Positions 1,943-45,985 of a stretch of DNA of 60,823 nucleotides are shown here, in pieces. Position numbers and translations under genes: made by a program. The stretch lies in IMG/VR virus record IMGVR_UViG_3300021957_000035, positions 1 to 60,823 of that record. One strand, 5' to 3'. This stretch comes from a virus. Taxonomy: Duplodnaviria; Caudoviricetes. The notes under the pieces are model-generated. The model had not been told where the DNA came from and ran no database searches. It was given only the letters and a program-made list of their open reading frames with translations. The first letter of the stretch is position 1. Every line of letters begins with the position of its first letter.

Positions 1943-2173
1943 TTATTTAATAATATCAACTAGTTCATCGATATTATCATCGTACATTTCCATGTAAAAG
2001 TCGTCATCAGACTCATGCATGTTTACACCAGAACACATGGCACCAAAACCGTCTTCAAATACATCAGTAACAGTTGCAGTTGGTATTTCTGGCATTGTTT
2101 CAAAAGCTTTTATTCGGATAATGCTACCTTCTTTAAGCAAAGGCAAAGTCCGACTTAAGGACGTCTCTGACAT
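1943..2173 (-). CDS. hypothetical protein
   Basis: ORF following the RNAP gene; start uncertain. Confidence 0.55.
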   Translation of the reverse strand: MSETSLSRTLPLLKEGSIIRIKAFETMPEIPTATVTDVFEDGFGAMCSGVNMHESDDDFYMEMYDDNIDELVDIIK

Positions 2174-4295
2174 TTAAGTTTCCTTTCTCTGGAATTAAAT
2201 CTTCTGAATCTAGTTGCTGCAGAATATTCTCAAGAGGCAAGCTCTCATAAAGTTCTACAAACTTTTCTCTAACATGATAAAACATCTTATCCATGTTACC
2301 TGCATGACAACCAAAAGAGTCATGTACTACAGTAGTTGGATAGTCTGCATCATGTATACACATAGTTAAGTGTACAGCATCAAGACTATGAACCACATTA
2401 GGTGCAGCACCAGTCTTCTGTTTAGTTTCATTTACAGTTGTTTCTTCCCACACTTGAAGCTGTACTTTAAGAATATCTTCACCGTACTTAAGCTCTGTGC
2501 GCTTATTAGTAGGCTTTCGATAGGCTTGTACAACAGGAAATCCAGTAACAGGGGAAATCCAACTCATATGAACTTTCTTCTTGTTAGCTCTCTCTGCTAA
2601 ACTCTGAAACATCTTAAGTAGCTTTGCTGGCCCCTTAAGCTCTTCATAACAGGTCTTATACACCAGAGCGCCAAGGAGTGCGCCCCAGAGATGCTCTTTG
2701 TCTCTTAGATAGGTAGATATATCTCTAGTGTCTTCTATTACCTGCTGGCCCATACCGTAGGACGTACCACCATAGCCTAGAGTCATTACATTTCTCTTAA
2801 CAGTCTTACGTTGAATTTTCTTATCTTGAATATTCAACCAGTATGTCGGAAATAATTTTTCTCGTAGGTCACGGTTTTGATTACGCCATGTTTGAGCAGT
2901 CTTAAAGGCTACAGACTTTCTTTCAGACTTATCAGGGGCAGTTTCATATTCTCTTTGAAGACTAACAGCTGTTTTAAATACTGCATCAAATTGGTTTTCA
3001 ACAGAAGTATCTCGTTTACGTTCTAAGTTTTCCCATACCTTTTCTGCTATAAACATATAAACATCTCCAGGCAACTCACTTGGAACAAGATTTACTAAAG
3101 GTGCTACTTCATCGTCTTGAGACATAGCTACAAGGTGTTGAACGCCGTTATTAGAACCATCAATGTAAACTGGAAGACAAGAAGGAAAGTCTTCTATATT
3201 TCCCTCCCACTCTGTTAACATTTTAATTTCATAACAAGCGGCAAGAAAGCTAAATGGTTTATCTGCTTTCATCCAGTCAGTGCTTGTCATTGGGTTTGTA
3301 GCATACTCAATAAACGTTTTTGCATTGTCTATTACAAACTGTACTCGATCATCTAGACTTACTTTGTCATTACCCCAAATGTTTGCAGTATGAACATAAA
3401 GCCAATAAACACCGTTTTCCCCTAGCGGTACAGGTTCGTCTAGCATTAAGATGCCTTTAGCATTGTCACTAGACTGCTCATGTAAGAACGCTGTATTAGG
3501 GTAAATACGGCCTCGGAAGTCGAGGTTATACAAGTGATAGAAAGGCTTGCCTACGTGCTTCTCTGCAAGTCTCTGAATAGCTTCTGCTTCAATGATTAAC
3601 GAGGCCCGTTTAATCGGATCAATCTCTTTAGTAAATTTAAAGGGATTAACTTCAGAGTGCATACACGCTTTGTACGTATCAAATACAAAGTTATTAATAC
3701 GCCAACCTGTATGATTAAGTCTATTAAGAGTGTCTACAATATAAGTCATATCACTATTTTCAAAGTGATTTAAAGCTGCTTCGTAGCCTTTTTTAATTAC
3801 ACTTATACCTGTTACTTCGTGATACGGGTCTTTATGCCAGTTTTCAGCAGGTGTGTTAACTGGAAACATATCACATTTCTCAATGTCTACTAAGTCCATA
3901 AGCTCTTTAATAGCTTTCCAGTCTTTAGCAAACAAGAAATAAGATCTATGCTTATCTTTTTTACCGTTTTTATAAGTATGTTTTTTACGATAACCTAGTA
4001 TACCTAACTCAATGTAGCTAATAATTACAAACCAACCACCTTGAACGTCTAGTACACTATTTTGTTTTTGTCTAAGTTTTTGTCTAAGTCGTCTGCCAAT
4101 ACTAGATGCGACTTCTACTAGAGTTGCTTTTCTCTCTAACCCTTTTAGTATGTGTGAATAAGAAAATTCAATAATATCTCTAGGTGACATTGTGTCTAAG
4201 AAACTTGCGGATTGTCTCTTATCTAATGATTTTTGTCGATATTCCAGATCTTCAGTTAATAGGTCTAGAATGGTTTTTTCTTCCATATATGTCAA
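2133..4295 (-). CDS. single-subunit T7/T3-type DNA-directed RNA polymerase (720 aa)
   Basis: DFRGRIYP; motif A IDGSNNGVQH; motif B RKTVKRNVMTLGYG; PNVVHSLDA; motif C VHDSFGCH. Confidence 0.97.
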   Translation of the reverse strand: MTYMEEKTILDLLTEDLEYRQKSLDKRQSASFLDTMSPRDIIEFSYSHILKGLERKATLVEVASSIGRRLRQKLRQKQNSVLDVQGGWFVIISYIELGILGYRKKHTYKNGKKDKHRSYFLFAKDWKAIKELMDLVDIEKCDMFPVNTPAENWHKDPYHEVTGISVIKKGYEAALNHFENSDMTYIVDTLNRLNHTGWRINNFVFDTYKACMHSEVNPFKFTKEIDPIKRASLIIEAEAIQRLAEKHVGKPFYHLYNLDFRGRIYPNTAFLHEQSSDNAKGILMLDEPVPLGENGVYWLYVHTANIWGNDKVSLDDRVQFVIDNAKTFIEYATNPMTSTDWMKADKPFSFLAACYEIKMLTEWEGNIEDFPSCLPVYIDGSNNGVQHLVAMSQDDEVAPLVNLVPSELPGDVYMFIAEKVWENLERKRDTSVENQFDAVFKTAVSLQREYETAPDKSERKSVAFKTAQTWRNQNRDLREKLFPTYWLNIQDKKIQRKTVKRNVMTLGYGGTSYGMGQQVIEDTRDISTYLRDKEHLWGALLGALVYKTCYEELKGPAKLLKMFQSLAERANKKKVHMSWISPVTGFPVVQAYRKPTNKRTELKYGEDILKVQLQVWEETTVNETKQKTGAAPNVVHSLDAVHLTMCIHDADYPTTVVHDSFGCHAGNMDKMFYHVREKFVELYESLPLENILQQLDSEDLIPEKGNLNVRDVLKSDFAFA

Positions 4296-19051: not shown

Positions 19052-22000
19052 CTATGGCCCGATACCATACCAGTCCTGCCCGTCTTTGAGCGGTGCTAGT
19101 ATGTCTTTTCTTGTTATTTTATTAGGAGGGTCAATAAGACCCTGATCTTTAGCTTCTTTAAGAAGCCTTTGGTAAGTTCTATAAGACATTCCTTGTCTGC
19201 GCATTTCTCTAAGGGTTTTTCTTATAGTATCGCCTTCTAGGGCATCTGCATAGATGGTCCTTAAAGCATCTTTTGCACGTCTTGCTTCACCTATATTAGT
19301 AAAGAAAGCATCGTGAATTGTTCCACTGTCTACGTTATTTTTACGCGCCCATAAATGAAAGCGCCTAACTATAACAGCATCGTTACTGTGGTTTCCATTA
19401 ACACCTAATCCAATCCTAGCATCATTAAGAGAGCCTTTACCTAAAAGCTTTCCGTCTTCAGCGCTGGATTCGTATATGTTAGATATTTTTCTGTTTGTAA
19501 CCGGATCTCTAAATTCAATACGCTCTTGAATTTTAGGACGGTATCTTTGTGTCATTATCTTGCCATCAAATGTAACCCACGGAATATCAACTTTTTGAGT
19601 TTCTTCAACGTAGGCTTTAGCAACTTGTTTCCAATAATTAATAAAATTATCAGTAACAGGTGCTCTATCAGCAAGATTTTTAGACATAATTCTAGATATT
19701 TCTGAGAACTCTTTTGGCCCAATAATACCCCTGCGAGCATTAGTAAGCTTATTAACAAAGTCACCAACATCAGGGTGTATATCTTGAGCTTGTTTTAATA
19801 GTGTACGACCAACAGGTTCGTTTTTATTAATTAACTCTAAGAGTTCGCTGCGAAAACTTTTAAGTTCTTCTACTGTACCTGTTGCACCTAATCGTTCGGC
19901 TACTTTAATTTTACCGTCAACAACTCTAAGGTTAGTACCTAGATTATCTTTAGTAACTGTTATAAAGCCTTTTTCGTCAAGTACTTTAGACAACTTATTA
20001 GCCACGTTAGCGGTTTTCGTAGCAGCTCCAGCGCCATAAAATGATACCATGTTTTGAGCTTTGGCTGCTTTAGCAAGATCTTCCCATGTAAGATTAGCAT
20101 CTCTGAGTGCAGGTATTTTAAGAAATTCTGGGTCATTTACTGTATCCATTGCAACTAAGTCATAAAGACGGTTTTTTTGAGTTGTAGCTAAAACATTTGA
20201 AGCTTGCGATACTGCCCTGTCGCCTGTAGAAAGCCCGATGATCTGAGCTCCACTGGATGAGGCATCATTTTCAATCATAAGTTTTGTTTTATAACTAGTA
20301 AGAGGTTTGTCTTGTTTAAGGTGTTTATTTATTCTAGCATATTCAATTGCCATTCTACCCATCTTAGGTACTTCTGGCCCTTCTAAACCCCGTATTAACG
20401 GATGTTCAAGAAACTCTCTTAGACGTCTGTCTCTTTGAGTTTTAGACATCATAATGTTACCTAGCTCAATAATCTTAGATTCATTACGTTTAAATATAGC
20501 ATTACGACCTGCTTGAGTAAGTGCTTCAGTTCCTGGACCGATTAAAGCTCCCATTTGAATTCTAAGTTCATCTAAAGCTTCAGTGCTCATATTAACAGCT
20601 TTACCTGAATTAAGAAAAGGTCTAACTAGTTCGCCGCCCGTAGGTGTAAGATATCCTCTGTGATATACTCGCCCCCTAGAATCAATAAACGCTTGAGTCC
20701 TAAAGTTTTTCCCTCTTTGAGCATGATACTTAGCAGTAGACATAAGTCCATAACCTTGTTCTCCTCGATTTAAAATTTCATGACGAAACTCATTAATACT
20801 GTCATAGTACTTAGATCTCCCTCTAGGATCTCTGAATCTAGCAATATCGTCCATAAACCCGAAGAACTCGTTATCAACTCCATATTCAACATCCATTACA
20901 TGATTAAGCATTTGAGCCATCTCACGATCAATTTGTTTAGGATCGTAATCTGGAAATTTATCTCTAGAGATTAAAGGTACCCCTGTTTCATTACCTCTGG
21001 CATCTACATATGTCTTTTTGTTAGCTTTTACATAAAGTCGATCTCTATCGTAAACAGTTCCAAGTCTTCTAGCAATAGTTACTTTACGTTCTGCTTCTTG
21101 AAGTTTAAGTAAAGTCTTATCTACAACAATTACTTCTCTAGAAATGCTATCTGCCCAACCACCTGAAGCTCTACCTGTATCTAAATCTAAAACACCTCTT
21201 CGAGTCTTACCTCTAAATTGAACTTTAATAAGGCCTTGATCTACCATAAAGTCAAGTATTTTAGATCCTTCTTTATGAAAGTCTTGCAAAGTATGTTTAG
21301 TAAAGGGTATGATATTCTCAAAATCTTTAGAAAATCTTTTTCCTATATTAATAGCTAAAGTATCATAATCAGTAGATTGCCCTGATGCAACTAGTTTAGC
21401 AATATTAGTTAAACTATCTAAAGCTTTTTCATCAAATAATTTAGAAGTAGGTTTTTTGTTTATAATTAAAAACTCAGCATCTAAAAGTCTACGTATAGTC
21501 TCTCTATTACGAGCAGCTAACTTAGTAATCAAAGAGTCAGAAGGTTCAGTTACTAGCTTTTGTAATTTTAAAAGTTTAGCAAAACCAGAATCTTTTTTTA
21601 ATTGCTTAATAAGTCGTTTTTTATTAGGATATTTATCAGTGAACTTTTTAAAATAAATTCTTAATGGCGCTCTGCCTTTAAAGAACATTTTAGTAGCTAA
21701 TTTTTTACCTTCAGTTCTACGCCATGCATCAATAAATCTTTGATCTTTTAGCTGGCTATCAATTAGGTTTTCAAAAGTATAATACTTACCCATAATTTGA
21801 ACTTGAGGTTTGTCTTGAGATAAATAACTAACAAACATTTCAGAACGCTTACGAGATCGTGTATCTAACAGCCTAGAAACGTTTTGAACAGCAAATCTAT
21901 TTTCTGCTCTTAATACAGCCGAAACATCATTCCAAGGTTTTTTATCTTTAGCATAACGTTCAAATACAACTCTTAAGTTTTCAATTACAACAGTTTGTTG

Positions 22001-23407
22001 ATTAACTGAAACTTTGTCATCTAATCCTGCAGCAATGCTTTCAATAAAATCTTTTTCATCTTGTTTAAGAAGTTTAGAATTACGCATAAAGTCAATACGT
22101 TCTTGATACAAGTTAAAATCAGGATCATAAATGTTATTGTTTTTAATTTCACCTGTTAACGGGTCAGCGCTAAAGTTACGTTCATCAAACTCGTTACCTA
22201 CTCTGCGCCTTGAAGCAGTTTTACCTGCAAGACTAGTACCTTTATAGTCTGTTAAAGACATAGTTTTAGAGTAATCATCAGCATCAAGTAAAAACATTTG
22301 CCTTACTAAAGCTTTCTGTTCTGGTGAGCGTAGCATAGAACTAGGGCGTTTAGCTTGAATATCTACTGCTTGCTCTCTAAGTTTTTGTTTAGGTGCAAAT
22401 ATAGCAGTAGCATTAGTAGCTTTATTTCTCAAAGCTTGAATAGACAATGCTTTACCTTTAGGTGTAACATACTGTTCAGCCTTAAGCCTTCCTTGTCTAA
22501 ATAAATTAGCTTGGTCCATTCCTCCAAGAAGTTTAGCTTGAATATCATAAGCTTGACGTTTTAACCATGCTCCGTAAGATTCTACTTTAGGTGCAACACC
22601 TGAAAGCGATTCTTCTTTCTTTTTAGCAAGGTTTGTTTTATTAAGTCTATTAGTGGTTTCTTTTTGAAGCTCTTCTTTAGATTTTAATACAGGCACCAAA
22701 GAACTACGACAATTCCAATGCAAAGGAGGAGTAAAGCGTCTATCGCTAACATCGTAAATCTTTCCATTATGATAAGAACAAATAGGGCTAGTACGGCTAT
22801 CAAGCACAGCAGTAAATACATAGCCTTTAACTACATGAGAATTTGCTTCTACAACTTTATTTAAAGCTGCTGTTTGAGTACTAGTTATAGAAGTTCTAGT
22901 TAAAGTTTTAGCCTGATGTTCAGTAAGCTTAGTAGTTTTAAGCACGTTGTTAATAATATCTTTAGGTGCTTCGCCTTTAGCAAGTCCTGCTTTTACTTTA
23001 GATTGTATTCTAACAAGTTCACCTGATGAAATGTTTTTCATATTTTGAGTAACTGTTTTAACACCTTTAATGTTTGATCCAGTTATTTCAGCAAGTAATT
23101 CTTTACTACGTGGCTTTGAAACCTTATAAAATTTATTTAGTTCTTTGTTTAGATTGTCCGAATGAAAGTCCAGTTGAGACGTTGAAAATTCTTTTAAAGA
23201 ACTAGTTTGATGAGTTAACATTTCTCGACCAAAGCGATTTACTTCAGGAGTAACATCATTAGTTAGTCTCTCTGAAAGAATGTCTCTTAAACGCTTCCTA
23301 TGCCTACGCATAATACGTCTGTTTTGTAACTGTACGCCTTCTTCGTATAATCTTACGTCAGTCATATGATCAACAATACGATCATAAAGTTTTAAATTGA
23401 TATCCAT
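19052..23407 (-). CDS. MuF (SPP1 gp7-like) head protein fused to a T7-superfamily RNA polymerase; putative virion RNAP
   Basis: N-terminus AVLDSRTSPIC...PPLHWNCRS (MuF); C-terminus DSRGRVY, ENDASSSGAQ, KAQNMVSFYG, NHSNDA, IHDAF. Confidence 0.9.
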   Translation of the reverse strand: MDINLKLYDRIVDHMTDVRLYEEGVQLQNRRIMRRHRKRLRDILSERLTNDVTPEVNRFGREMLTHQTSSLKEFSTSQLDFHSDNLNKELNKFYKVSKPRSKELLAEITGSNIKGVKTVTQNMKNISSGELVRIQSKVKAGLAKGEAPKDIINNVLKTTKLTEHQAKTLTRTSITSTQTAALNKVVEANSHVVKGYVFTAVLDSRTSPICSYHNGKIYDVSDRRFTPPLHWNCRSSLVPVLKSKEELQKETTNRLNKTNLAKKKEESLSGVAPKVESYGAWLKRQAYDIQAKLLGGMDQANLFRQGRLKAEQYVTPKGKALSIQALRNKATNATAIFAPKQKLREQAVDIQAKRPSSMLRSPEQKALVRQMFLLDADDYSKTMSLTDYKGTSLAGKTASRRRVGNEFDERNFSADPLTGEIKNNNIYDPDFNLYQERIDFMRNSKLLKQDEKDFIESIAAGLDDKVSVNQQTVVIENLRVVFERYAKDKKPWNDVSAVLRAENRFAVQNVSRLLDTRSRKRSEMFVSYLSQDKPQVQIMGKYYTFENLIDSQLKDQRFIDAWRRTEGKKLATKMFFKGRAPLRIYFKKFTDKYPNKKRLIKQLKKDSGFAKLLKLQKLVTEPSDSLITKLAARNRETIRRLLDAEFLIINKKPTSKLFDEKALDSLTNIAKLVASGQSTDYDTLAINIGKRFSKDFENIIPFTKHTLQDFHKEGSKILDFMVDQGLIKVQFRGKTRRGVLDLDTGRASGGWADSISREVIVVDKTLLKLQEAERKVTIARRLGTVYDRDRLYVKANKKTYVDARGNETGVPLISRDKFPDYDPKQIDREMAQMLNHVMDVEYGVDNEFFGFMDDIARFRDPRGRSKYYDSINEFRHEILNRGEQGYGLMSTAKYHAQRGKNFRTQAFIDSRGRVYHRGYLTPTGGELVRPFLNSGKAVNMSTEALDELRIQMGALIGPGTEALTQAGRNAIFKRNESKIIELGNIMMSKTQRDRRLREFLEHPLIRGLEGPEVPKMGRMAIEYARINKHLKQDKPLTSYKTKLMIENDASSSGAQIIGLSTGDRAVSQASNVLATTQKNRLYDLVAMDTVNDPEFLKIPALRDANLTWEDLAKAAKAQNMVSFYGAGAATKTANVANKLSKVLDEKGFITVTKDNLGTNLRVVDGKIKVAERLGATGTVEELKSFRSELLELINKNEPVGRTLLKQAQDIHPDVGDFVNKLTNARRGIIGPKEFSEISRIMSKNLADRAPVTDNFINYWKQVAKAYVEETQKVDIPWVTFDGKIMTQRYRPKIQERIEFRDPVTNRKISNIYESSAEDGKLLGKGSLNDARIGLGVNGNHSNDAVIVRRFHLWARKNNVDSGTIHDAFFTNIGEARRAKDALRTIYADALEGDTIRKTLREMRRQGMSYRTYQRLLKEAKDQGLIDPPNKITRKDILAPLKDGQDWYGIGP

Positions 23408-38564: not shown

Positions 38565-38780
38565 TTATACCACCGTCCATGTTTCACCAGATCCAACTGT
38601 AACTGTAACACCGCTGTTAATTGTAATTGGCCCTGCAGACATTGCATTATGATTATTCCTAATAGTATAACTAGACGCTACCGTAGTAGGATTTTCTTTA
38701 AATACTGCTAAAGAGTTATTATCCATTTCTGTATGTGTTAATGCACTGCCTTTATCCGCTCTTGTTGTAATAGATGTCAT
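38565..38780 (-). CDS. small virion structural protein
   Basis: GSALTHTEMDNN and NAMSAGPITINSGVTVTV motifs. Confidence 0.6.
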   Translation of the reverse strand: MTSITTRADKGSALTHTEMDNNSLAVFKENPTTVASSYTIRNNHNAMSAGPITINSGVTVTVGSGETWTVV

Positions 38781-39670
38781 CGATAATCATATCCTCTAGT
38801 TGTAGAAACATAATCGTATTTATATTCTTCTCGTTTGTCTAGAATATACTCAAAATACATTTCCATTTGTTTTTGCCAGTTTTCTTGTAGTTCAGGGTTT
38901 ACAATTCCCGATTTAGGGCTATTTAAAGCCTTTTGCATCCAATTATAAGGATCACTATTATTAAATAAATTTCTGTTTATATGGTAAAAAGAACCTTCAT
39001 GTACTCTGTTATAAACATCAATAGGATCTACTTCCTTACCTAAAGCTACAGCATAAACTGCACTTTCTGTCATATGTGATAAGTGTGCTACTTCACAACC
39101 AAGTAGTAACTTATACATATTAATATCTCGATCTAATACTATATCCCCAAGCATGTCTTTTAATTCACCAACAATAGCGTAAGTGGTAAGAGGATGTGGT
39201 TTAAACCAGATATCACCCTCCCACTTATCTCTTAAATAACACAATTTATTTGCACAAATAGTTTCTTTAATTTTATTAGAACCTAACGGTATAATTAAAT
39301 GATCTTTAGGCTCAAGATCATGATCCTTAATATGATCATATTTATTAGAAGTACCGTTAGTAGCTTTTTCTACAAAGTAAGACATAAAATCTGTTTTTAT
39401 TTCACAGTCATCTTCGTGTGCTTCTTCTAGTTGTTTACAACGAAGCATTTGTTGAAGCGGATTCATGGAAAAGCAATGCGCCCATTCAGTGTATTGTATA
39501 GTTTTGAAATAAGGAAGTTCATTTGCAACTACATCGTATGCAGACTCAATCTTATGTTTCTTTTTAAGTTTAAAAAAATGTTTTTCACATTCTTTTAAGT
39601 GCAAAAGAGTTTTTGATTTACGCATATCGCCAATACGCTCTTTAATAGAGGCTTTATTAAACATTTCCAT
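38777..39670 (-). CDS. putative glycosyltransferase (KpsS/KpsC-like)
   Basis: IWFKPHP and SHMTESAVYAVALGKEV resemble the K.HP and S.vg.EAl..GK.V motifs. Confidence 0.55.
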   Translation of the reverse strand: MEMFNKASIKERIGDMRKSKTLLHLKECEKHFFKLKKKHKIESAYDVVANELPYFKTIQYTEWAHCFSMNPLQQMLRCKQLEEAHEDDCEIKTDFMSYFVEKATNGTSNKYDHIKDHDLEPKDHLIIPLGSNKIKETICANKLCYLRDKWEGDIWFKPHPLTTYAIVGELKDMLGDIVLDRDINMYKLLLGCEVAHLSHMTESAVYAVALGKEVDPIDVYNRVHEGSFYHINRNLFNNSDPYNWMQKALNSPKSGIVNPELQENWQKQMEMYFEYILDKREEYKYDYVSTTRGYDYR

Positions 39671-39679
39671 GATATTATC

Positions 39680-41959
39680 CTAACTGTAAAATGAAGTCAC
39701 CCTAAGCGTATTAAACGTAGTTGTGGTGCTTCTACTTGTGCTAAATGTGGTTGTAAACGTACTACTAGTACTAAATGTAGTAGTAAAAGTAGTAATAGTA
39801 CTTTTGCTTGTTGAAAAAGTTGTCGTTGTTGACCTTGTTGTATTAAAAGTAGTAGTAGTACTCCTAGTAGTATTATAATACGTTGTATAAGTTGTAATAG
39901 TACTACGAGTTGTGTTAAACGTTGTAGTTGTACTATGACTAGTTGCATACGTTGTAGTCGTACTTCTACTAGTGCTTGTTGCAAAAGTAGTAGTAGTACT
40001 ATGACTTGTAGCATAAGTAGTTGTAGTGCTCCTACTAGTGCTTGTTGCAAAAGTTGTTGTAGTACTATGACTAGTTGCATACGTTGTTGTTGTACTTTTA
40101 GTAGTATTAAATGTTGTTGTAGTACTATGGCTTGTTGTATGACTAGTTTGATATGTTGTAGTTGTACTTTGGGTAGTATTATAAGTTGTAGTTGTAGCTC
40201 TACTAGTGGCAAACGTAGTAGTAGTACTGTGACTAGTTGTATGTGCAGTCAGATATGCCGTTGTAGTTGACTTACTGGTATTATAAGTAGTAGTAGTACT
40301 CCTAGTAGTATTATAATACGTTGTATAAGTTGTCGTAGTTGAACGACTAGTAGAGAACACAGTTGATGTAGTTCTACTAGTATTAAACGTAGTAGTTGTC
40401 AAAAGAGAAGTGTTTCTACTAGTGTTATACGTAGTAGTTGTAATTTTAGCCGTGTTATAAGTTGTCGTAGTTGTATGACTTGTAGTATAAACCGTTGCTG
40501 TAGTTCTACTAGTTGAAAAGGTTGTAATAGTAGCCATAGACGTATTATAATACGTAGTATACTCTGTTGTTGTACTACGAGTCGTATTAAACGTTGTAGT
40601 TGTACTATGGCTAGTATTAAATGTTGTTGTAGTACTATGGCTAGTGTTATAGCTTGTTGTAGTGCTATGGCTAGTATTATAACTTGTAGTCGTATTATAC
40701 GTTGTTGTAGTGCTTTTACTTGTACTAAATGTAGTAGTCGTATTAAACGTAGTCGTAGTGCTTCTACTTGTGCTTGCACTAGTATTTACAACATAATTTA
40801 CATTCATATAGTTAGTAGCAACGTAGTTTTGAAAACTTGTATTAAACGTTGTTGTAGTACTTTTACTTGTACTGGTCGATCGAGTAGTGTTAAAGGTCGT
40901 AGTTGTACTATGACTTGTGCTTGTTGATCGACTGGTACTATAAGTCGTAGTCGTACTTTTGCTTGTTGAATATGTTGTAGTTGTACTTTTGCTAGTTGCA
41001 TAAGTCGTTGTTGTACTATTACTTGTACTAAAAGTCGTAGTTGTACTATGACTCGTAGTATGACTAGTTTGGAAAGTTGTAGTTGTACCCTTAGTAGTAT
41101 TATAAGTAGTAGTCGTACTATGACTAGTATTATATGTAGTAGTTGTACTATGACTAGTTGCATAAGTTGTAGCTGTAGTACGGCTAGTTGAGAAAGTAGT
41201 AGTAAAAGTCGTAGTAGTAGATCTACTTGTACTAAACGTAGTTGTAGTACCACGAGATGTATTAAAAGTTGTAGTTGTACTATGGCTTGTAGTATGACTA
41301 GTGGTAAAAGTCGTAGTTGTGCTGTGACTTGTAGAATACACTGTTGTAGTACTTTTACTTGTAGAATACACTGTTGTATAAGTCGTAGTGGTACTTTTAG
41401 TAGTATTAAAAGTTGTCGTTGTACTGTGACTCGTAGCAAACGTTGTAGTCGTGCTATGACTAGTATTATAATAAGTCGTATAAGTCGTAGTTGTAGCTCT
41501 ACTAGTAGCAAAAGTAGTAGTAGTACTAGTATTTGTATTATACGTTGTTGTTGTACTTCTAGTAGTGTTTGTATTAAACGTTGTAGTCGTACTTGTATTT
41601 GTATTATACGTAGTAGTAGTACTTCTAGTAGTGTTTGTATTAAACGTTGTAGTCGTACTATGACTAGTATTATAAGTCGTAGTTGTTGCACGACTAGTTG
41701 CAAAAGTAGTAGTAGTACTATGCTCAGTACTATGACTAGTTTGGAAAGTTGTAGTTGTACTATTACTTGTCGCAAACGTAGTAGTTGTAGCTTGACTCGT
41801 ATTGAATGTTGTTGTTGTAGACGCAGTTGTAGCTCTACTAGTATTAAATGTAGTTGTTGTACTTCTACTAGTATTAAATGTAGTAGTCGTAGATTTAGAA
41901 GTGGAGACTGATGTGCTCCACTCCTTTATCCCGTCCATAAATCCAAAGTTGTTGCTCAT
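39680..41959 (-). CDS. Thr-rich mirror-repeat protein (759 aa), putative fibre
   Basis: 62 decamers T-S-[HRK]-S-T-T-T-T-[FY]-[NSA] in two 354-aa arms; GGAG SD; lies in the fibre operon. Confidence 0.85.
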   Translation of the reverse strand: MSNNFGFMDGIKEWSTSVSTSKSTTTTFNTSRSTTTTFNTSRATTASTTTTFNTSQATTTTFATSNSTTTTFQTSHSTEHSTTTTFATSRATTTTYNTSHSTTTTFNTNTTRSTTTTYNTNTSTTTTFNTNTTRSTTTTYNTNTSTTTTFATSRATTTTYTTYYNTSHSTTTTFATSHSTTTTFNTTKSTTTTYTTVYSTSKSTTTVYSTSHSTTTTFTTSHTTSHSTTTTFNTSRGTTTTFSTSRSTTTTFTTTFSTSRTTATTYATSHSTTTTYNTSHSTTTTYNTTKGTTTTFQTSHTTSHSTTTTFSTSNSTTTTYATSKSTTTTYSTSKSTTTTYSTSRSTSTSHSTTTTFNTTRSTSTSKSTTTTFNTSFQNYVATNYMNVNYVVNTSASTSRSTTTTFNTTTTFSTSKSTTTTYNTTTSYNTSHSTTTSYNTSHSTTTTFNTSHSTTTTFNTTRSTTTEYTTYYNTSMATITTFSTSRTTATVYTTSHTTTTTYNTAKITTTTYNTSRNTSLLTTTTFNTSRTTSTVFSTSRSTTTTYTTYYNTTRSTTTTYNTSKSTTTAYLTAHTTSHSTTTTFATSRATTTTYNTTQSTTTTYQTSHTTSHSTTTTFNTTKSTTTTYATSHSTTTTFATSTSRSTTTTYATSHSTTTTFATSTSRSTTTTYATSHSTTTTFNTTRSTITTYTTYYNTTRSTTTTFNTTRSTTTTFSTSKSTITTFTTTFSTSSTFTTTFSTSRSTTTTFNTLRVTSFYS

Positions 41960-41971
41960 AAGAATCTCCTA

Positions 41972-44900
41972 TTATGCGAAGTTTCCTATATAGTTTACTA
42001 GGACTTCTGTTGAACTTACTACCATATACGATAATACTGATGTTGAATTAGCACCTGTATACTGTGTAATAGTAGCACCTCCGACTGGTGTTTTGCAAGA
42101 AGACGGTAAGGTAAAGTCTCTACCTCCCGTAGAATCTTGTTTTAATACAATAGTACCTGAACTTGTAACTGCATTAGCTAAATTTGATAAAGTAAATGTA
42201 GTATCTGCTTGCATAGTAACTACATGAAAGTTAGATGCAGTCATATCAATAGTAGTAGCCGAAGTAGAGGCAGTAACAGTATTTGCTGTTGATTTAACAA
42301 TACCACCAACATTAGCAGTACCAGACAAGTGAAGGTCTTTCCAACGCTTATCGGATTTACCTAAGTCTATCGCATTGTCTGCATCAGAGCCATTTTGTTT
42401 AGGAACAATGGTATTGTCTTTAAAGCGCAATCCTGAATGATTAGCACTACCGTCTATAACAAAGTCACCGTTGCTGTCAGTCCCAATACTCCCCACAGTG
42501 GTGCCATCTTTGCGGAACACTGCAATGTCGCCGTCACTATCTTCACGATTAAGTATTTGTGCAATGCCAGTTCTTGTTGCCGTTAATAAACCACTAGCCT
42601 GTAACTCAATACCATTTGTATTATTGTAAGTATCTGCTGAAGTCTTACCCACCAACAAGTTACCGCTGCTGTCGATGACTAATCTATTTGCAGAAGCATC
42701 TACGTCCCTTATCGTAAAACCGCTATTGGCAACTCCGGGTGTACCTGCTGTTATTTGAAAGTTATCGGCATTTGCATTACTGTGGCTTAGATTTATTGCA
42801 GGGAGTGATGATGAGCCTGTGCTAATGCTTAGGTTGCCAGTCATAGTACCGCCAGCTAAAGGTAATTTAGTAGCAATTGAATCAGTAACAGTAGTGCTAA
42901 AGTTAGCGTCATCATTTAAAGCTGCTGCTAACTCGTTAAGAGTATCTAAAGTAGAAGGTGCTGAGTCAACAAGGCTAGACACAGAAGTGTCAACATACTG
43001 TTTTGTTGCTGCACCTAAATTAACACTAGGATTAGCATTAAGAATTAAATTGCCAGTCATAGTGCCACCAGCTTTTGGCAATGCTGCGTTAGCAGTAGTA
43101 CCCTGTGCGGCTGTAGCATAGTCGGAGCTATCAAATGCTTTAACTTGTGATAGGTTAGTAACTTCGCTATCCATTAAGGCACCAGCGGCAGTAACATTAG
43201 TAGTATCTGTTACATCAGCAGAGGCTTCTATGTTATTTAATTTAGTATGATCACTGTCAGTAAATACATTACTATCTGTAGCCGATTCTACAAGAGTACG
43301 TATTTCAGCTGCAGTTTGATCTGCAGTTGCAGAGGCTTCAATTCCATTAATTTTAGTTTTATCCGCTGCAGACATTAATCCTGCTGCAGAAGTAGTAGCG
43401 GCACTATAAACAGTATCACTATCATCTACCCATGCATAATCACTACCATTCCAAGCTAAAATTTGATTATTACCTGCCGAGGATTGATTAAGATGTGTAT
43501 CTACATCACTATTAGCATATCCTGCAGGAACACTTGCCCAATCATAATCACTACCATTCCAAGACAAATATTCTCCGCTTGAAGCTGTAGAAGTATTTAA
43601 ATGAGAATCTACATTACTATTGGCGTATTGAGCACTTCCTGAAATTGTAAGAGAGTTACCCGCATCATTATAGTTTAAAGTAATTCCAGTTCCAGCTGTA
43701 AGTAACCCACCTACAACATCTTGAATAGCTTCTGTTGTAGCTGCTGTAGCTCCCCAATTTGATCCATCATAAACTTTAAGCGAACTATCAGTTGAGTTAA
43801 AATACAATGCACCTGTTATAAGAGCATTACCGTCGTTGTCAACTGAAGGATCAGAAGATTTACTTCCTAAGTATCGATCATCAAAACTGTCTAAAGCAGC
43901 TTCAGCTGCTGTTTGAGCAGTCTGAGCGGAAGTCGCACTTGATGCAGCACCAGTTGCTGAACTTGCAGCCGCAGTAGCACTACTAGCAGCATTTGTCTCT
44001 GCTGTTTCTGCATTAGTTTCAGCAGTCTCCGCAGCAGTTTTAGCGGTCTCAGCAGCGACCTTTGAAGTATTAGCAGCAGTAGCAGAATTAGAAGCATTAG
44101 TAGCACTTGTAGCTGCTGCAGTAGCTGAGTTTCCAGCATTAGTTGCAGAAGTAGACGCGCTCGTAGCACTAGTAGTAGCCGAAGTAGCAGCGTTAGTTGC
44201 TGTTACAGAAGGCGCTTGCCATGCTGAACCACTATAAAATTTAATTACATTGTCAGTGCTATTATAATACATAGCACCTTCTACTAAGGCATTACCGTCA
44301 TTATCAACACTTGGATCAGAACTTTTGGTTCCTAAAAACTTATCGTCAAAATTATCAAAAGCTAATTCGGTTGCTGCTTGCGCTGTTTGTGCTGCTGTAG
44401 CAGACGTAGCTGCATTAGTAGCAGAAGTTGAGGCACCGCTTGCAGAAGTAGCCGCATTAGTAGCTGAAGTAGATGCTCCACTAGCAGAGGTAGCAGCATT
44501 AGTTGCTGATGTAGCAGCAGCGGTTGCGCTATTACCTGCGTTAGTAGCTGATGTAGCAGAATTAGTAGCACTAGTCGAAGCACTGCTTGCGCTTGAAGCA
44601 GCTGCTGTAGCTGAGTTCCCTGCATTAGTTTCTGAAGTGGCTGAGTTAGTAGCGGATGTAGCAGCACTAGTTGCAGATGTAGCTGCTGCTGTAGCACTAT
44701 TAGAAGCTGCTGTGGCACTTGTCGCTGCATTATTTGCTAAAGTGCTAGCAGTTGATGCACTACCCGCAGAATTATTAGCTGACGTTAAAGAAGAGGCCGC
44801 TGAAGTGGCGGCACTAGTGGCACTAGTAGCTGCTGCTGTAGCACTATTAGAGGCTGCTGCTTCAGGGGATTCCCATGCTGTTCCATTATAAAACTTAATA

Positions 44901-45985
44901 GCATTATTTGTACTGTTGTAGTACATAGCACCTTCTACTAAAGCATTACCATCATTATCTAGAGTTGGATCTGATGCTTTAGTGCCTAAGAACTTATCAT
45001 CAAAGTTATCAAATAATAACTCTACTGCTGCTCTGTCTGTTGCTGTATCAGTCTTATAGTTAAGAGCACTTGCAGCTGAAGCAGTAGCTGAAGTCGCACT
45101 ACTAGCTGCACTTATAGCATTTGCTGCTGCATTAGAAGAATGATTCCCCGCTGTAGTAGCTGAGTTAGCCGCTGCAGTAGCTGAAGATCCTGCACTAGCT
45201 GCACTATTAGCAGAATTAGTTTCTGAGGTGGCTGCAGCAGTTTTACTAGCTGTGGCGCTAGTATCAGAACTAGAAGCAGACGTAGCAGATGCAGCAGCTG
45301 CAGTAGCGCTATTCCCTGCATTAGTTTCTGAAGTAGCCGCATTGGTTTCGCTAGTAGCTGCATTAGCTGCTTTCGTAGTAGCTGTTGAAGCACTCGCTGA
45401 AGCATTAGTAGCACTCGTGGCTGCATTAGTTTCTGCTGTTTCAGCGTTAGTCTCTGCTGTTTCAGCTGCGACCTTAGAAGTGTTAGCTGCTGTCGCAGAG
45501 GTAGCTGCTGCTGTAGCCGAAGTAGCTGCTGCGGTAGCACTGTTAGCCGCTGCAGTAGCCGATGTAGTTGCTAATGCAATAGGATATTGCCAAGTATTTA
45601 CGTTGTATACACCTAAAGCAGAGGTTGTAGTATCAAAGTACATAGCTCCGTTTTGAAGAGCATTACCATCATTATCGAGGCTAGGTGCTGAAGACTTAGA
45701 GCCTAAAAACACATCATCAACAGTATCTGCTGCTGTTTCTGTAGCGACCTTTAAAGCAGTAATAGATGCAATTAAATTAGCACCACCAAGATTTACATCT
45801 TGTACTTGTTGTCCTGCTGAGTTACTTATTATTACGTGAAAGTCTCCATTACTATCAATAGAGGCATTTGTGATAGAATCACCTTTAGCGCCTTGACCAC
45901 CTGTTCTAGACAGGGTAAGGTTAACATCTTGTGATGTGCTTGTTAAAGCATAGTTGTTTCCATTAATTGTAATAGCATAAGACAT
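41972..45985 (-). CDS. long tail fibre protein (1337 aa)
   Basis: Ala/Ser/Thr coiled-coil blocks separated by four DD.FLG.K.S.P..DNDGNAL..GA.Y repeats; LDTLNELAAAL; GGTMTGNL. Confidence 0.85.
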   Translation of the reverse strand: MSYAITINGNNYALTSTSQDVNLTLSRTGGQGAKGDSITNASIDSNGDFHVIISNSAGQQVQDVNLGGANLIASITALKVATETAADTVDDVFLGSKSSAPSLDNDGNALQNGAMYFDTTTSALGVYNVNTWQYPIALATTSATAAANSATAAATSATAAATSATAANTSKVAAETAETNAETAETNAATSATNASASASTATTKAANAATSETNAATSETNAGNSATAAAASATSASSSDTSATASKTAAATSETNSANSAASAGSSATAAANSATTAGNHSSNAAANAISAASSATSATASAASALNYKTDTATDRAAVELLFDNFDDKFLGTKASDPTLDNDGNALVEGAMYYNSTNNAIKFYNGTAWESPEAAASNSATAAATSATSAATSAASSLTSANNSAGSASTASTLANNAATSATAASNSATAAATSATSAATSATNSATSETNAGNSATAAASSASSASTSATNSATSATNAGNSATAAATSATNAATSASGASTSATNAATSASGASTSATNAATSATAAQTAQAATELAFDNFDDKFLGTKSSDPSVDNDGNALVEGAMYYNSTDNVIKFYSGSAWQAPSVTATNAATSATTSATSASTSATNAGNSATAAATSATNASNSATAANTSKVAAETAKTAAETAETNAETAETNAASSATAAASSATGAASSATSAQTAQTAAEAALDSFDDRYLGSKSSDPSVDNDGNALITGALYFNSTDSSLKVYDGSNWGATAATTEAIQDVVGGLLTAGTGITLNYNDAGNSLTISGSAQYANSNVDSHLNTSTASSGEYLSWNGSDYDWASVPAGYANSDVDTHLNQSSAGNNQILAWNGSDYAWVDDSDTVYSAATTSAAGLMSAADKTKINGIEASATADQTAAEIRTLVESATDSNVFTDSDHTKLNNIEASADVTDTTNVTAAGALMDSEVTNLSQVKAFDSSDYATAAQGTTANAALPKAGGTMTGNLILNANPSVNLGAATKQYVDTSVSSLVDSAPSTLDTLNELAAALNDDANFSTTVTDSIATKLPLAGGTMTGNLSISTGSSSLPAINLSHSNANADNFQITAGTPGVANSGFTIRDVDASANRLVIDSSGNLLVGKTSADTYNNTNGIELQASGLLTATRTGIAQILNREDSDGDIAVFRKDGTTVGSIGTDSNGDFVIDGSANHSGLRFKDNTIVPKQNGSDADNAIDLGKSDKRWKDLHLSGTANVGGIVKSTANTVTASTSATTIDMTASNFHVVTMQADTTFTLSNLANAVTSSGTIVLKQDSTGGRDFTLPSSCKTPVGGATITQYTGANSTSVLSYMVVSSTEVLVNYIGNFA

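Follow-up and report, generated by a model that had tools for sequence, protein, structure and literature searches.

We describe a threonine-rich protein of 759 amino acids (aa) from a virus genome, IMG/VR record IMGVR_UViG_3300021957_000035 (Duplodnaviria; Caudoviricetes), and propose that it is probably a virion fibre or stalk protein that folds back into paired antiparallel arms, held in register by matched, even-numbered insertions and deletions (indels). The window, that is the whole stretch of DNA analysed, is the entire virus record of 60,823 bases. The protein has equal arms, features that match at mirror positions, inserts of even length only, duplications of separate origin in its two arms and a conserved partner gene beside it. 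From the sequence we infer that the arms pair as an intrachain beta hairpin; by analogy with other phage fibres the oligomer is probably a trimer, and the role would be that of a length-tunable device for reach or adhesion. The position of the gene, sandwiched between a tail-fibre gene and a conserved gene for a 297-aa partner protein, also counts in favour of a fold-back fibre.

Threonine makes up 48% and serine 18% of the protein, which is built of 10-aa units of the form [NAS]TS[HRK]STTTT[FY], broken by units of 4, 6, 12, 14 and 16 aa. Its sole non-repeat stretch is central (approximately aa 373-398: NTSF QNY VATNY MNVNY VVNTSAS), and odd spacing of aromatic residues (3, 5, 5) is confined to it. 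The two residues preceding the last Tyr of this centre are, across relatives, VN, GG, GN, NN or AG, all pairs that form tight turns. An anchor-free mirror scan of the aromatics gave a best i+j of 777, which puts the fold point at aa 388.5 (388/389) with 31 coincident pairs; 200 unit-order shuffles gave a mean of 12.7 and a maximum of 20. With this fold sum the first ~17 aa overhang the C-terminus. The gene and its parts are:

39680..41959, minus strand: coding sequence of the putative Thr-rich fold-back protein, 759 aa; frame supported by third-position-only differences and by conservation in relatives
41918..41959, minus strand: head, aa 1-14 (MSNNFGFMDGIKEW); motif ..GF..G.KEW/F in all relatives, including the short tip-domain forms
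40832..41917, minus strand: N arm, aa 15-376 (362 aa)
40757..40831, minus strand: putative apex or tip, the non-repeat centre QNYVATNYMNVNY (aa 377-389) plus VVNTSASTSRST (to aa 401)
39713..40792, minus strand: C arm, aa 390-749 (360 aa)
39683..39712, minus strand: tail, aa 750-759 (NTLRVTSFYS); NTLR.TSFY, or R.T.FYA, conserved in relatives
41510..41641, minus strand: N-arm duplication, (NTNTTRSTTTTY NTNTSTTTTF) x2, aa 107-150; within the Tandem Repeats Finder array 41510-41686
39917..40078, minus strand: C-arm duplication, (ATSHSTTTTF ATSTSRSTTTTY) x2 plus ATSHSTTTTF, aa 628-681; within the Tandem Repeats Finder array 39917-40105

Arm lengths, duplications and mirror order

Since the Thr-rich protein is too low in complexity for direct searches, relatives were fetched via its 297-aa neighbour. 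This gave 71 related loci, 19 on viral contigs and 52 from metagenomes (individual loci carry L numbers below). A complete open reading frame (ORF) was found in 44 of them, and these together with the window collapse to 30 distinct arm pairs, locus L048 being set aside. The N arm was measured from head to centre and the C arm from centre to tail. All full-length relatives have in common the head (..GF..KEW), a 13-aa centre (Q[ND]YVATxYxxxxY or a variant of it) and the tail (NTLRxTSFY), and their total length ranges from 426 to 863 aa. For 25 of the 30 distinct arm pairs, the N arm is exactly 2 aa longer than the C arm, with balanced arms spanning 194/192 to 412/410 aa in 17 length classes. When C-arm lengths were permuted among sequences the mean was 1.9 matches, and the maximum in 100,000 permutations was 10. 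Arms of 398/396 aa are found even in L076 and L077, members of a more distant lineage whose partner protein is 57% identical. Seventeen length classes imply at least 16 length changes per arm, each matched in the other arm. Such paired changes can be followed between siblings: +56/+56 from L023 to L026, +44/+44 from L011 to L018 and L012, +44/+44 from L030 to L032, and +34/+34 from L013 to L042. Moreover, identical balanced arms recur at several loci (L013, L015, L049 and L050; L002, L025 and L027), some of which are the same contig in two collections.

The window protein carries one candidate for such a pair of changes. Tandem Repeats Finder detected two arrays of 66 base pairs (bp), at 41510-41686 (2.7 copies, 86% matches) and 39917-40105 (2.9 copies, 82%). 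Written whole, the doubled 22-aa unit of the N arm is NTNTTRSTTTTYNTNTSTTTTF x2 (aa 107-150), and that of the C arm is ATSHSTTTTFATSTSRSTTTTY x2 (aa 628-671) or, equally, ATSTSRSTTTTYATSHSTTTTF x2 (aa 638-681). The two N-arm copies are identical at 59 of 66 nucleotides (nt) and the C-arm copies at 55 of 66; none of the 7 and 11 differences changes an amino acid, and all fall at third codon positions. The frame is therefore a coding one maintained by purifying selection, and some time has passed since the duplications arose. An earlier note, made from the letters of the window alone, had claimed that 22-aa duplications sit at mirror positions of the two arms, that the duplicated units differ in sequence and that the arms are not reverse complements in DNA. 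All three statements hold. Mirrored about the fold point, aa 107-150 becomes aa 627-670, one residue off the C-arm double unit at 628-671. The copies are arm-specific, those of the N arm being NTNTTRS-type and those of the C arm ATSTSRS-type, which shows that the duplications were separate events and were not copied from each other. As for DNA, the longest inverted repeat in the gene spans only 28 nt at 75% complementarity, and this match mirrors the ACT/AGT codon composition.

The same (12+10)-aa unit is single in both arms of L023, L020, L021, L026 and L069 and double in both arms of the window and L002, so that each arm of L002 is 22 aa longer than its counterpart in L026 and L069; doubling in one arm only was seen in none of the full-length copies examined. 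This distribution, with units unlike in sequence, supports the view put forward in the note that two separate 66-bp duplications form a compensatory pair, and the check it had proposed (whether 66-bp indels among relatives occur in both arms together), run here on the 71 loci, came out in favour of that view. The comparative data thus indicate that the mirror placement of the two duplications is not due to chance. Within-array identity in L002 is 64/66 in the N arm and 54/66 in the C arm (2 versus 12 differences, compared with 7 versus 11 in the window); 66 nt per unit is too little to resolve which duplication came first.

Beyond the duplications, the unit order of one arm is mirrored in the other. 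In L071 three 12-aa units are spaced by 50 and 20 aa, counted from outside to inside, in both arms; a forward order would reverse these spacings. L029 has (10 10 10 4) x5 opposite (14 10 10) x6, and L003 has (4 14) x4 near its N-terminus and again near its C-terminus. In 23 balanced sequences with 644 N-arm aromatics altogether, an aromatic of the C arm stands at mirrored index +11 for 521 of them (81%) and at mirrored index +1 for 487 (76%); most other mirrored offsets reach at most 26%, the exceptions being +21 (61%) and +25 (43%). When the unit order of the C arm was shuffled 1000 times, no shuffle attained the observed mirror value in 24 of 25 balanced sequences. Parallel (direct) alignment of the arms is erratic, with scores of 0.29-0.92, whereas mirror scores are uniformly high.

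Facing segments are often matched in length by unlike sequence. A 14-aa unit lies opposite a 10-aa unit plus a 4-aa mini-unit (TTYY or TTTF), a 16-aa unit opposite 10 + NTTTTF, and 6+16 opposite 6+6+10; likewise, a 12-aa unit of NTNTTRS type in the N arm faces a 12-aa unit of ATSTSRS type in the C arm. In L003 the arms contain, on our reading of the unit strings, ~34 versus ~32 units of at least 10 aa, and yet the number of residues is equal. It is path length in residues, and not unit number, that is conserved between the arms. Because the compensating inserts are unlike in sequence, selection on register is indicated and not a DNA mechanism.

There is also a strict rule of parity. All non-10-aa units in the 30 sequences are even in length (156 of 4 aa, 51 of 6, 35 of 12, 199 of 14, 48 of 16 and 5 of 20). 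Odd units occur only as adjacent pairs with an even sum (TTY+Y, 7+7, 5+5 and so on), with the lone exception of a 9-aa unit in L021. Aromatics hold a single parity along a whole arm, for example 40/40 and 47/47 in L003.

Two further patterns were observed in the arms. The choice between Phe and Tyr correlates between mirrored aromatics in 21 balanced sequences, with an odds ratio of 4.5 at +1 and 0.54 at +11; this may carry register information, and since the sequences are non-independent we draw no register from it. Regular extras of 2, 4 or 6 aa every second to fourth unit produce super-periods of 18, 22, 34 and 44 aa, which vary among relatives and are always alike in two facing arm segments. 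These may reflect ribbon twist or oligomer contacts.

The partner gene and the wider family

38777..39670, minus strand: conserved partner gene, 297 aa (phrog_26179, unknown function), 9 nt downstream of the Thr-rich ORF

A Thr-rich ORF lies directly upstream of the partner gene in 66 of the 71 loci, the other five having less than 240 nt upstream of the match; its reading frame is likewise kept in 66 of 71. A profile of the presumed central hairpin matched 44 representatives. The 11 of these that we inspected are complete and short (182-263 aa), with the same head and tail and 4-7 Thr-rich units on each side of a globular domain of 62-111 aa, rich in Tyr, Gly and Trp, which is set between the two arms. 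With crudely drawn boundaries, their Ser/Thr-rich arms measure 77/74, 66/65, 59/57, 51/48, 59/63, 70/69, 66/63, 58/55, 57/54, 43/41 and 56/53 aa. Of 30 loci reached via one short relative, 20 have a homologue of the 297-aa protein (33-57% identity) just downstream. At the other end of the range stands a 1701-aa relative (L096-L098 and L138-L139, for example L098:204-5315) with arms of 807 and 811 aa and a Cys-containing tip of 71 aa; its N arm is built as (10 10 10 TTYY) and its C arm as (14 10 10), both with a period of 34 aa.

A broader search found 305 viral contigs that encode a relative of the partner. Of these, 80 were kept and 74 loci examined, in 61 of which a Thr/Ser-rich ORF ends just upstream of the partner gene. 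The anchor-free mirror scan was applied to the 36 distinct complete ORFs among them, and 21 beat all 100 shuffles. Sixteen of these 21, which range from 463 to 1701 aa and have quite dissimilar apices, place the fold point 0.50-0.524 of the way along the chain. Taken together, these comparisons would make the window protein a tip-less, long-armed extreme of a stalk-and-tip family. We define on this basis a family of Thr-rich decapeptide proteins, putative fold-back stalks, that go with a 297-aa partner; the window protein belongs to it by its termini, its symmetry and its synteny.

The partner protein had no match in Pfam, and its best hit in the PDB had E = 0.93. In an Atlas search it retrieved only viral hypothetical clusters; the cluster at rank 13 has PF05159 (Capsule_synth) on 14% of its members, a weak lead towards a glycosyltransferase. 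(An Atlas search with P0015 was uninformative.) The partner could be a chaperone or a glycosyltransferase. Homologues at 23-25.5% identity are found in Caulobacter phages (8 records). In two of these, Lullwater (gp42) and Cr30 (gp255), the homologue follows a fibre-like gene and a small protein rich in Thr, Ser and Tyr, and the C-terminal end of Lullwater gp41, ...RPTVRVTSRETT, recalls the tail motif. As a separate observation, P0002 (422 aa) has a Thr-rich W-type repeat and a tail-like motif FNTLRSTYRFTY, after which come a Gly7-Cys junction and a domain of ~170 aa; our impression is that this extra domain resembles a self-cleaving or Hint-like module.

The 759-aa protein itself matched no Pfam family at E <= 0.01 and no PHROG family at E <= 0.001. 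A tblastn search against 50,697 phage records found no match to it, nor did the short relative P0014 match in that collection, from which otherwise just one 165-nt match was obtained, elsewhere in the fibre region. A word search with the whole protein retrieved distant Thr-rich proteins only, and one with aa 352-421 alone gave nothing at E <= 1e-6. Among the papers accessible to the search, full texts searched for the repeat motifs (STTTTF, STTTTY, TSRSTTTT, TSKSTTTT) yielded unrelated papers only, and titles and abstracts on threonine-rich tail fibres or beta-hairpins, or on compensatory indels in antiparallel coiled coils, held nothing on the family.

Proposed fold and alternatives

Our proposal can be set out as follows. 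The N arm (aa 15-376) would run outward as a continuous beta-strand-like chain, reverse at the Tyr/Asn/Gly-rich apex (aa ~377-401, fold point 388/389) and return as the C arm (aa 390-749), pairing antiparallel with the N arm residue for residue. The conserved head, with its ~17-aa overhang, and the tail would then meet at the base, where they could dock on the virion, and the apex or tip would point away from it. Register would be kept by an aromatic rung about every 10 residues in a strict two-residue phase. One face of the ribbon would carry F/Y, the basic residue at position 4 and T2/T6/T8, and the other N/A/S, S, S, T, T; of these two faces, one aromatic and basic and the other purely Ser/Thr, one presumably packs in the oligomer. 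Repeat slippage may often yield length variants of a single arm, and only those balanced by a second event would persist. A change that persists would be equal, even-numbered and at the mirror position, and the two 66-bp duplications would be one such pair. Units of even length only, a single parity and arms equal in residues fit two uninterrupted antiparallel beta-strand-like chains, and, on the sequence data, a solenoid or meander with the unit as its rung could not easily account for them.

Several observations weigh against this proposal. First, the sequences are related and some loci are one contig in two collections, so the counts given above are not counts of independent events. Second, the arms are unequal in 5 of the 30 distinct sequences (N minus C: L020 +36, L021 +1, L044 +46, L052 +58, L067 +90). 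The note's stronger statement, that length can change only by paired indels, must be tempered accordingly: arms are matched in 25 of 30, and these five assembled unequal. L020 lacks one 34-aa block of the C arm and otherwise has 0 mismatches to L023, its 102-nt deletion being flanked by an exact repeat of 45 nt. L044 lacks 44 aa of the C arm, with 1 mismatch to L007 and a deletion flanked by an exact repeat of 33 nt, and L021 lacks one codon in a Thr run (1 mismatch to L023). Compared with L064, to which it has 0 mismatches, L067 carries an extra 132-nt block in the N arm and is short of one in the C arm. L052 is a mosaic, its outer arms L026-like and its centre L023-like. Third, L048 (583-1059) encodes only 159 aa, comprising head, ~12 units and tail with no centre, on a contig of 1658 nt, a form expected either from recombination between the direct repeats of the arms or from assembly collapse. 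If L048 and the unequal variants are real and viable, the constraint is not absolute.

Each of the five unequal variants was seen at one locus only, and four of them lie 0-1 nt from a balanced sibling, apart from length changes bounded by repeats. They are either assembly errors or very young variants, and either origin fits selection against unbalanced arms. The 132-nt blocks of L064 and L067 are tandem copies without any difference, and their exact homology extends over 143 and 281 nt, for which reason short-read assembly cannot fix their copy number; this means that the balanced state of L064 is not solid either, a further point to be set against our reading. Parts of the gene are carried by 24 public runs, all as contigs; contigs from 4 of these runs are pieces of 49-970 nt that break inside the repeats and are uninformative on one-arm variants.

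The wider family and the structural models supply the remaining points of this kind. Mirror symmetry was absent in 15 of the 36 partner-linked ORFs scanned, and none was found in L100, L088, P0001, P0003 and P0008. Single-arm relatives with C-terminal globular domains exist, and such asymmetric members imply that the repeat can exist without a return arm. AlphaFold2 on the full-length protein without an alignment gave a mean predicted local distance difference test (pLDDT) score of 42.1, too poor to use, and a run on aa 311-466 (156 aa) with a 26-sequence alignment gave a pLDDT of 31.7, likewise of unusable confidence. At these low confidences both models contain strands only, and the central one places two 22-residue strands on either side of the centre. 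Finally, at ~3.3 A per residue a fully extended arm of 360 residues would measure ~120 nm and arms of 810 aa ~270 nm (by arithmetic), far beyond any solved hairpin known to us.

More tentatively, and with rather less than an even chance in our estimation, the structure may be a single two-stranded antiparallel beta-ribbon of ~360 residue pairs (~100 nm; ~810 pairs in relatives) that serves as a molecular ruler, with the partner as its folding factor or modifying enzyme. On this scheme the aromatic rungs would recur each 10 residues on one face, the Ser/Thr-only face would pack in the oligomer, and length would be freely tunable by paired even indels, setting how far the tip reaches through the surface layers of the host. 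Were this true, the ribbon would be by far the longest beta-hairpin known.

The pairing could instead be intermolecular, extended chains lying head-to-tail with the N arm of one against the C arm of another and no hairpin at all, which we think rather unlikely. Every symmetry statistic fits a two-fold antiparallel dimer equally well, and the low-confidence AlphaFold2 models do not discriminate. However, the centre is the sole non-repeat stretch, breaks the two-residue phase and carries the turn-forming pairs (GG, GN, NN, VN, AG), while relatives swap it for a globular domain of 62-111 aa between equal arms, which is a stalk-and-tip layout. The joint conservation of head and tail motifs also speaks for a fold-back chain over a dimer, as does the fact that phage fibres have one virion-proximal end.

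A second alternative, which we hold to be quite unlikely, keeps a single chain and gives it two compact stalks side by side, each arm being its own beta-solenoid or meander in which a strand corresponds to one 10-aa unit, and the pair needing to share only a similar height. The low-confidence full-length AlphaFold2 model, with strands of 6-8 residues and loops of 3-5 residues, leans this way, and the single-arm relatives do so too. Yet equal height would conserve the number of units, whereas it is the residues that match exactly and the units that differ (~34 versus ~32 in L003). Mini-units of 4 and 6 aa cannot be rungs and are nevertheless compensated exactly, and a solenoid with turns requires neither an even-only rule nor a single aromatic parity over 400 residues.

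Far less probable is a cause at the level of DNA, by direct segmental duplication or gene conversion between the arms with no constraint on the protein. The outer parts of the window arms do share a forward unit order (14 10 10 12 10 12 10 10 4 10 10 10 4), and the best parallel alignments, at up to 0.92, come from relatives such as L013 and L011. Against this, parallel scores are erratic where mirror scores are uniformly high, L071, L029 and L003 match in mirror order only, the compensating inserts are arm-specific and different in sequence, and no inverted repeat links the two arms. Unequal crossing-over between direct repeats would, moreover, remove the centre, as in L048, or double it, and would do nothing to equalise the arms. 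We reject direct duplication or gene conversion of the arms on the grounds of mirror order and unlike inserts. It is hardly credible, lastly, that chance or assembly artefact produced the pattern: the gene consists very largely of repeats, contigs from public runs end within it and certain copy numbers stay ambiguous, but the 25 balanced sequences stand against a permutation maximum of 10, identical balanced arms recur at several loci, assembly errors would unbalance arms and not balance them, and X1 record 2 reads across the C-arm array without a single difference.

Known systems and genome setting

The closest structural precedent for a fold-back fibre is the needle of T4 gp37, of which the window protein is no member. 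As described for gp37 (PMC6957217), residues 811-881 and 1010-1026, on either side of the needle, make up the collar domain D10, and the tip (D10/D11) is trimeric, binds iron via His motifs and depends on dedicated chaperones encoded nearby. The two have in common a setting in a fibre module, equal segments on both sides of the tip and a conserved neighbouring partner gene, and on our proposal they would also share a chain that runs out to a tip and back. Unlike gp37, the window protein has a Thr-rich decapeptide repeat, arms several to more than 10 times longer (an estimate from these residue ranges) and a tip reduced to a turn of ~25 aa, and Pfam and PHROG reveal no sequence or profile similarity between them. 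An iron-binding HxH needle was considered and rejected: no H.H occurs in the 759-aa protein, which has 24 His, with five H...H spacings inside 14-aa units.

In evolutionary logic the nearest counterpart is the fold-back coiled-coil arm of SMC proteins, a class to which the window protein does not belong either. In SMC proteins (PMC5344682), the N- and C-terminal parts of one chain lie paired for tens of nanometres on either side of a hinge at which the chain turns back; evolution constrains how long the arms are, and function is lost when their local periodicity is broken. Length-matched N and C segments are common to SMC and Rad50 proteins and the window protein, and so, on our proposal, are a fold-back chain and the rule that both halves must change together. 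The SMC and Rad50 arms are alpha-helical with heptad and ~3.5-aa periods, whereas the window protein has periods of 2 and 10 aa and is expected to form beta structure; and SMC arm length is nearly fixed, in contrast to a 2-fold range among close relatives and a ~20-fold range across the wider family. RNA hairpin stems offer a more distant parallel, in that distant segments co-vary through antiparallel pairing and mismatched intermediates are rare and young. Here, by contrast, it is protein that pairs, and what is compensated is the length of insertions and not the identity of bases. Thr ladders and cross-strand aromatic pairs are familiar from Thr-rich flat beta proteins, such as the TxT arrays of insect and beetle antifreeze proteins, the single-layer sheets of OspA and Trp-zipper hairpins. 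To our knowledge these proteins are short, globular or solenoid, with a fixed coil length, and they show neither arms hundreds of residues long nor paired indels. The unit lengths seen here (4, 6, 10, 12, 14, 16 and 20 aa) differ from the constant coil length of a beta-solenoid.

If the fold-back proposal is true, the family would be an unusually clean natural case of compensatory protein indels, in which two distant stretches of a gene have to lengthen or shorten together, by steps of two residues, since they pair in the folded protein. It would also define a two-gene module, widespread and unannotated, in phages from marine, estuarine and other sources; in this module stalk length varies from ~40 to ~800 residues per arm. 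The very long beta ribbon predicted from the sequence, for which AlphaFold2 gives no confident model, would be a target for structural work and suggests a natural scaffold of programmable length. In addition, the parity rule could serve to flag misassembled copies of such repeat genes, and a link between fibre length and host surface becomes testable.

The genes around the fold-back candidate fit a siphovirus-like phage. Every long ORF of the window is on the minus strand, and its estimated completeness is 89%. PHROG scans identified a tape-measure protein, major head protein, portal, J-like central fibre and distal tail protein, together with the large terminase, PhoH, ribonucleotide reductase, a primase/helicase and RNA polymerase. 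The source would be an uncultivated marine or estuarine siphovirus-like phage. The gene immediately upstream of the Thr-rich ORF is:

41972..45985, minus strand: tail fibre protein, 1337 aa; PHROG tail-fibre families, best phrog_38058, E = 1e-116

Its stop is separated by 12 nt from the start of the Thr-rich ORF. This 1337-aa protein contains ~5 repeats of a ~40-aa module, DD.FLG.K.S.P..DNDGNAL..GA.Y.N..., the first four of which are spaced by long stretches of SATAAATSATNA type, rich in Ala, Ser, Thr and Asn. Elsewhere in the window, a 1451-aa protein (19052-23407, minus strand) joins a head-morphogenesis (SPP1 gp7-like) N-terminal region to a phage RNA polymerase match (phrog_414, aa 900-1141), and a separate RNA polymerase gene of 720 aa lies at 2133-4295 on the minus strand.

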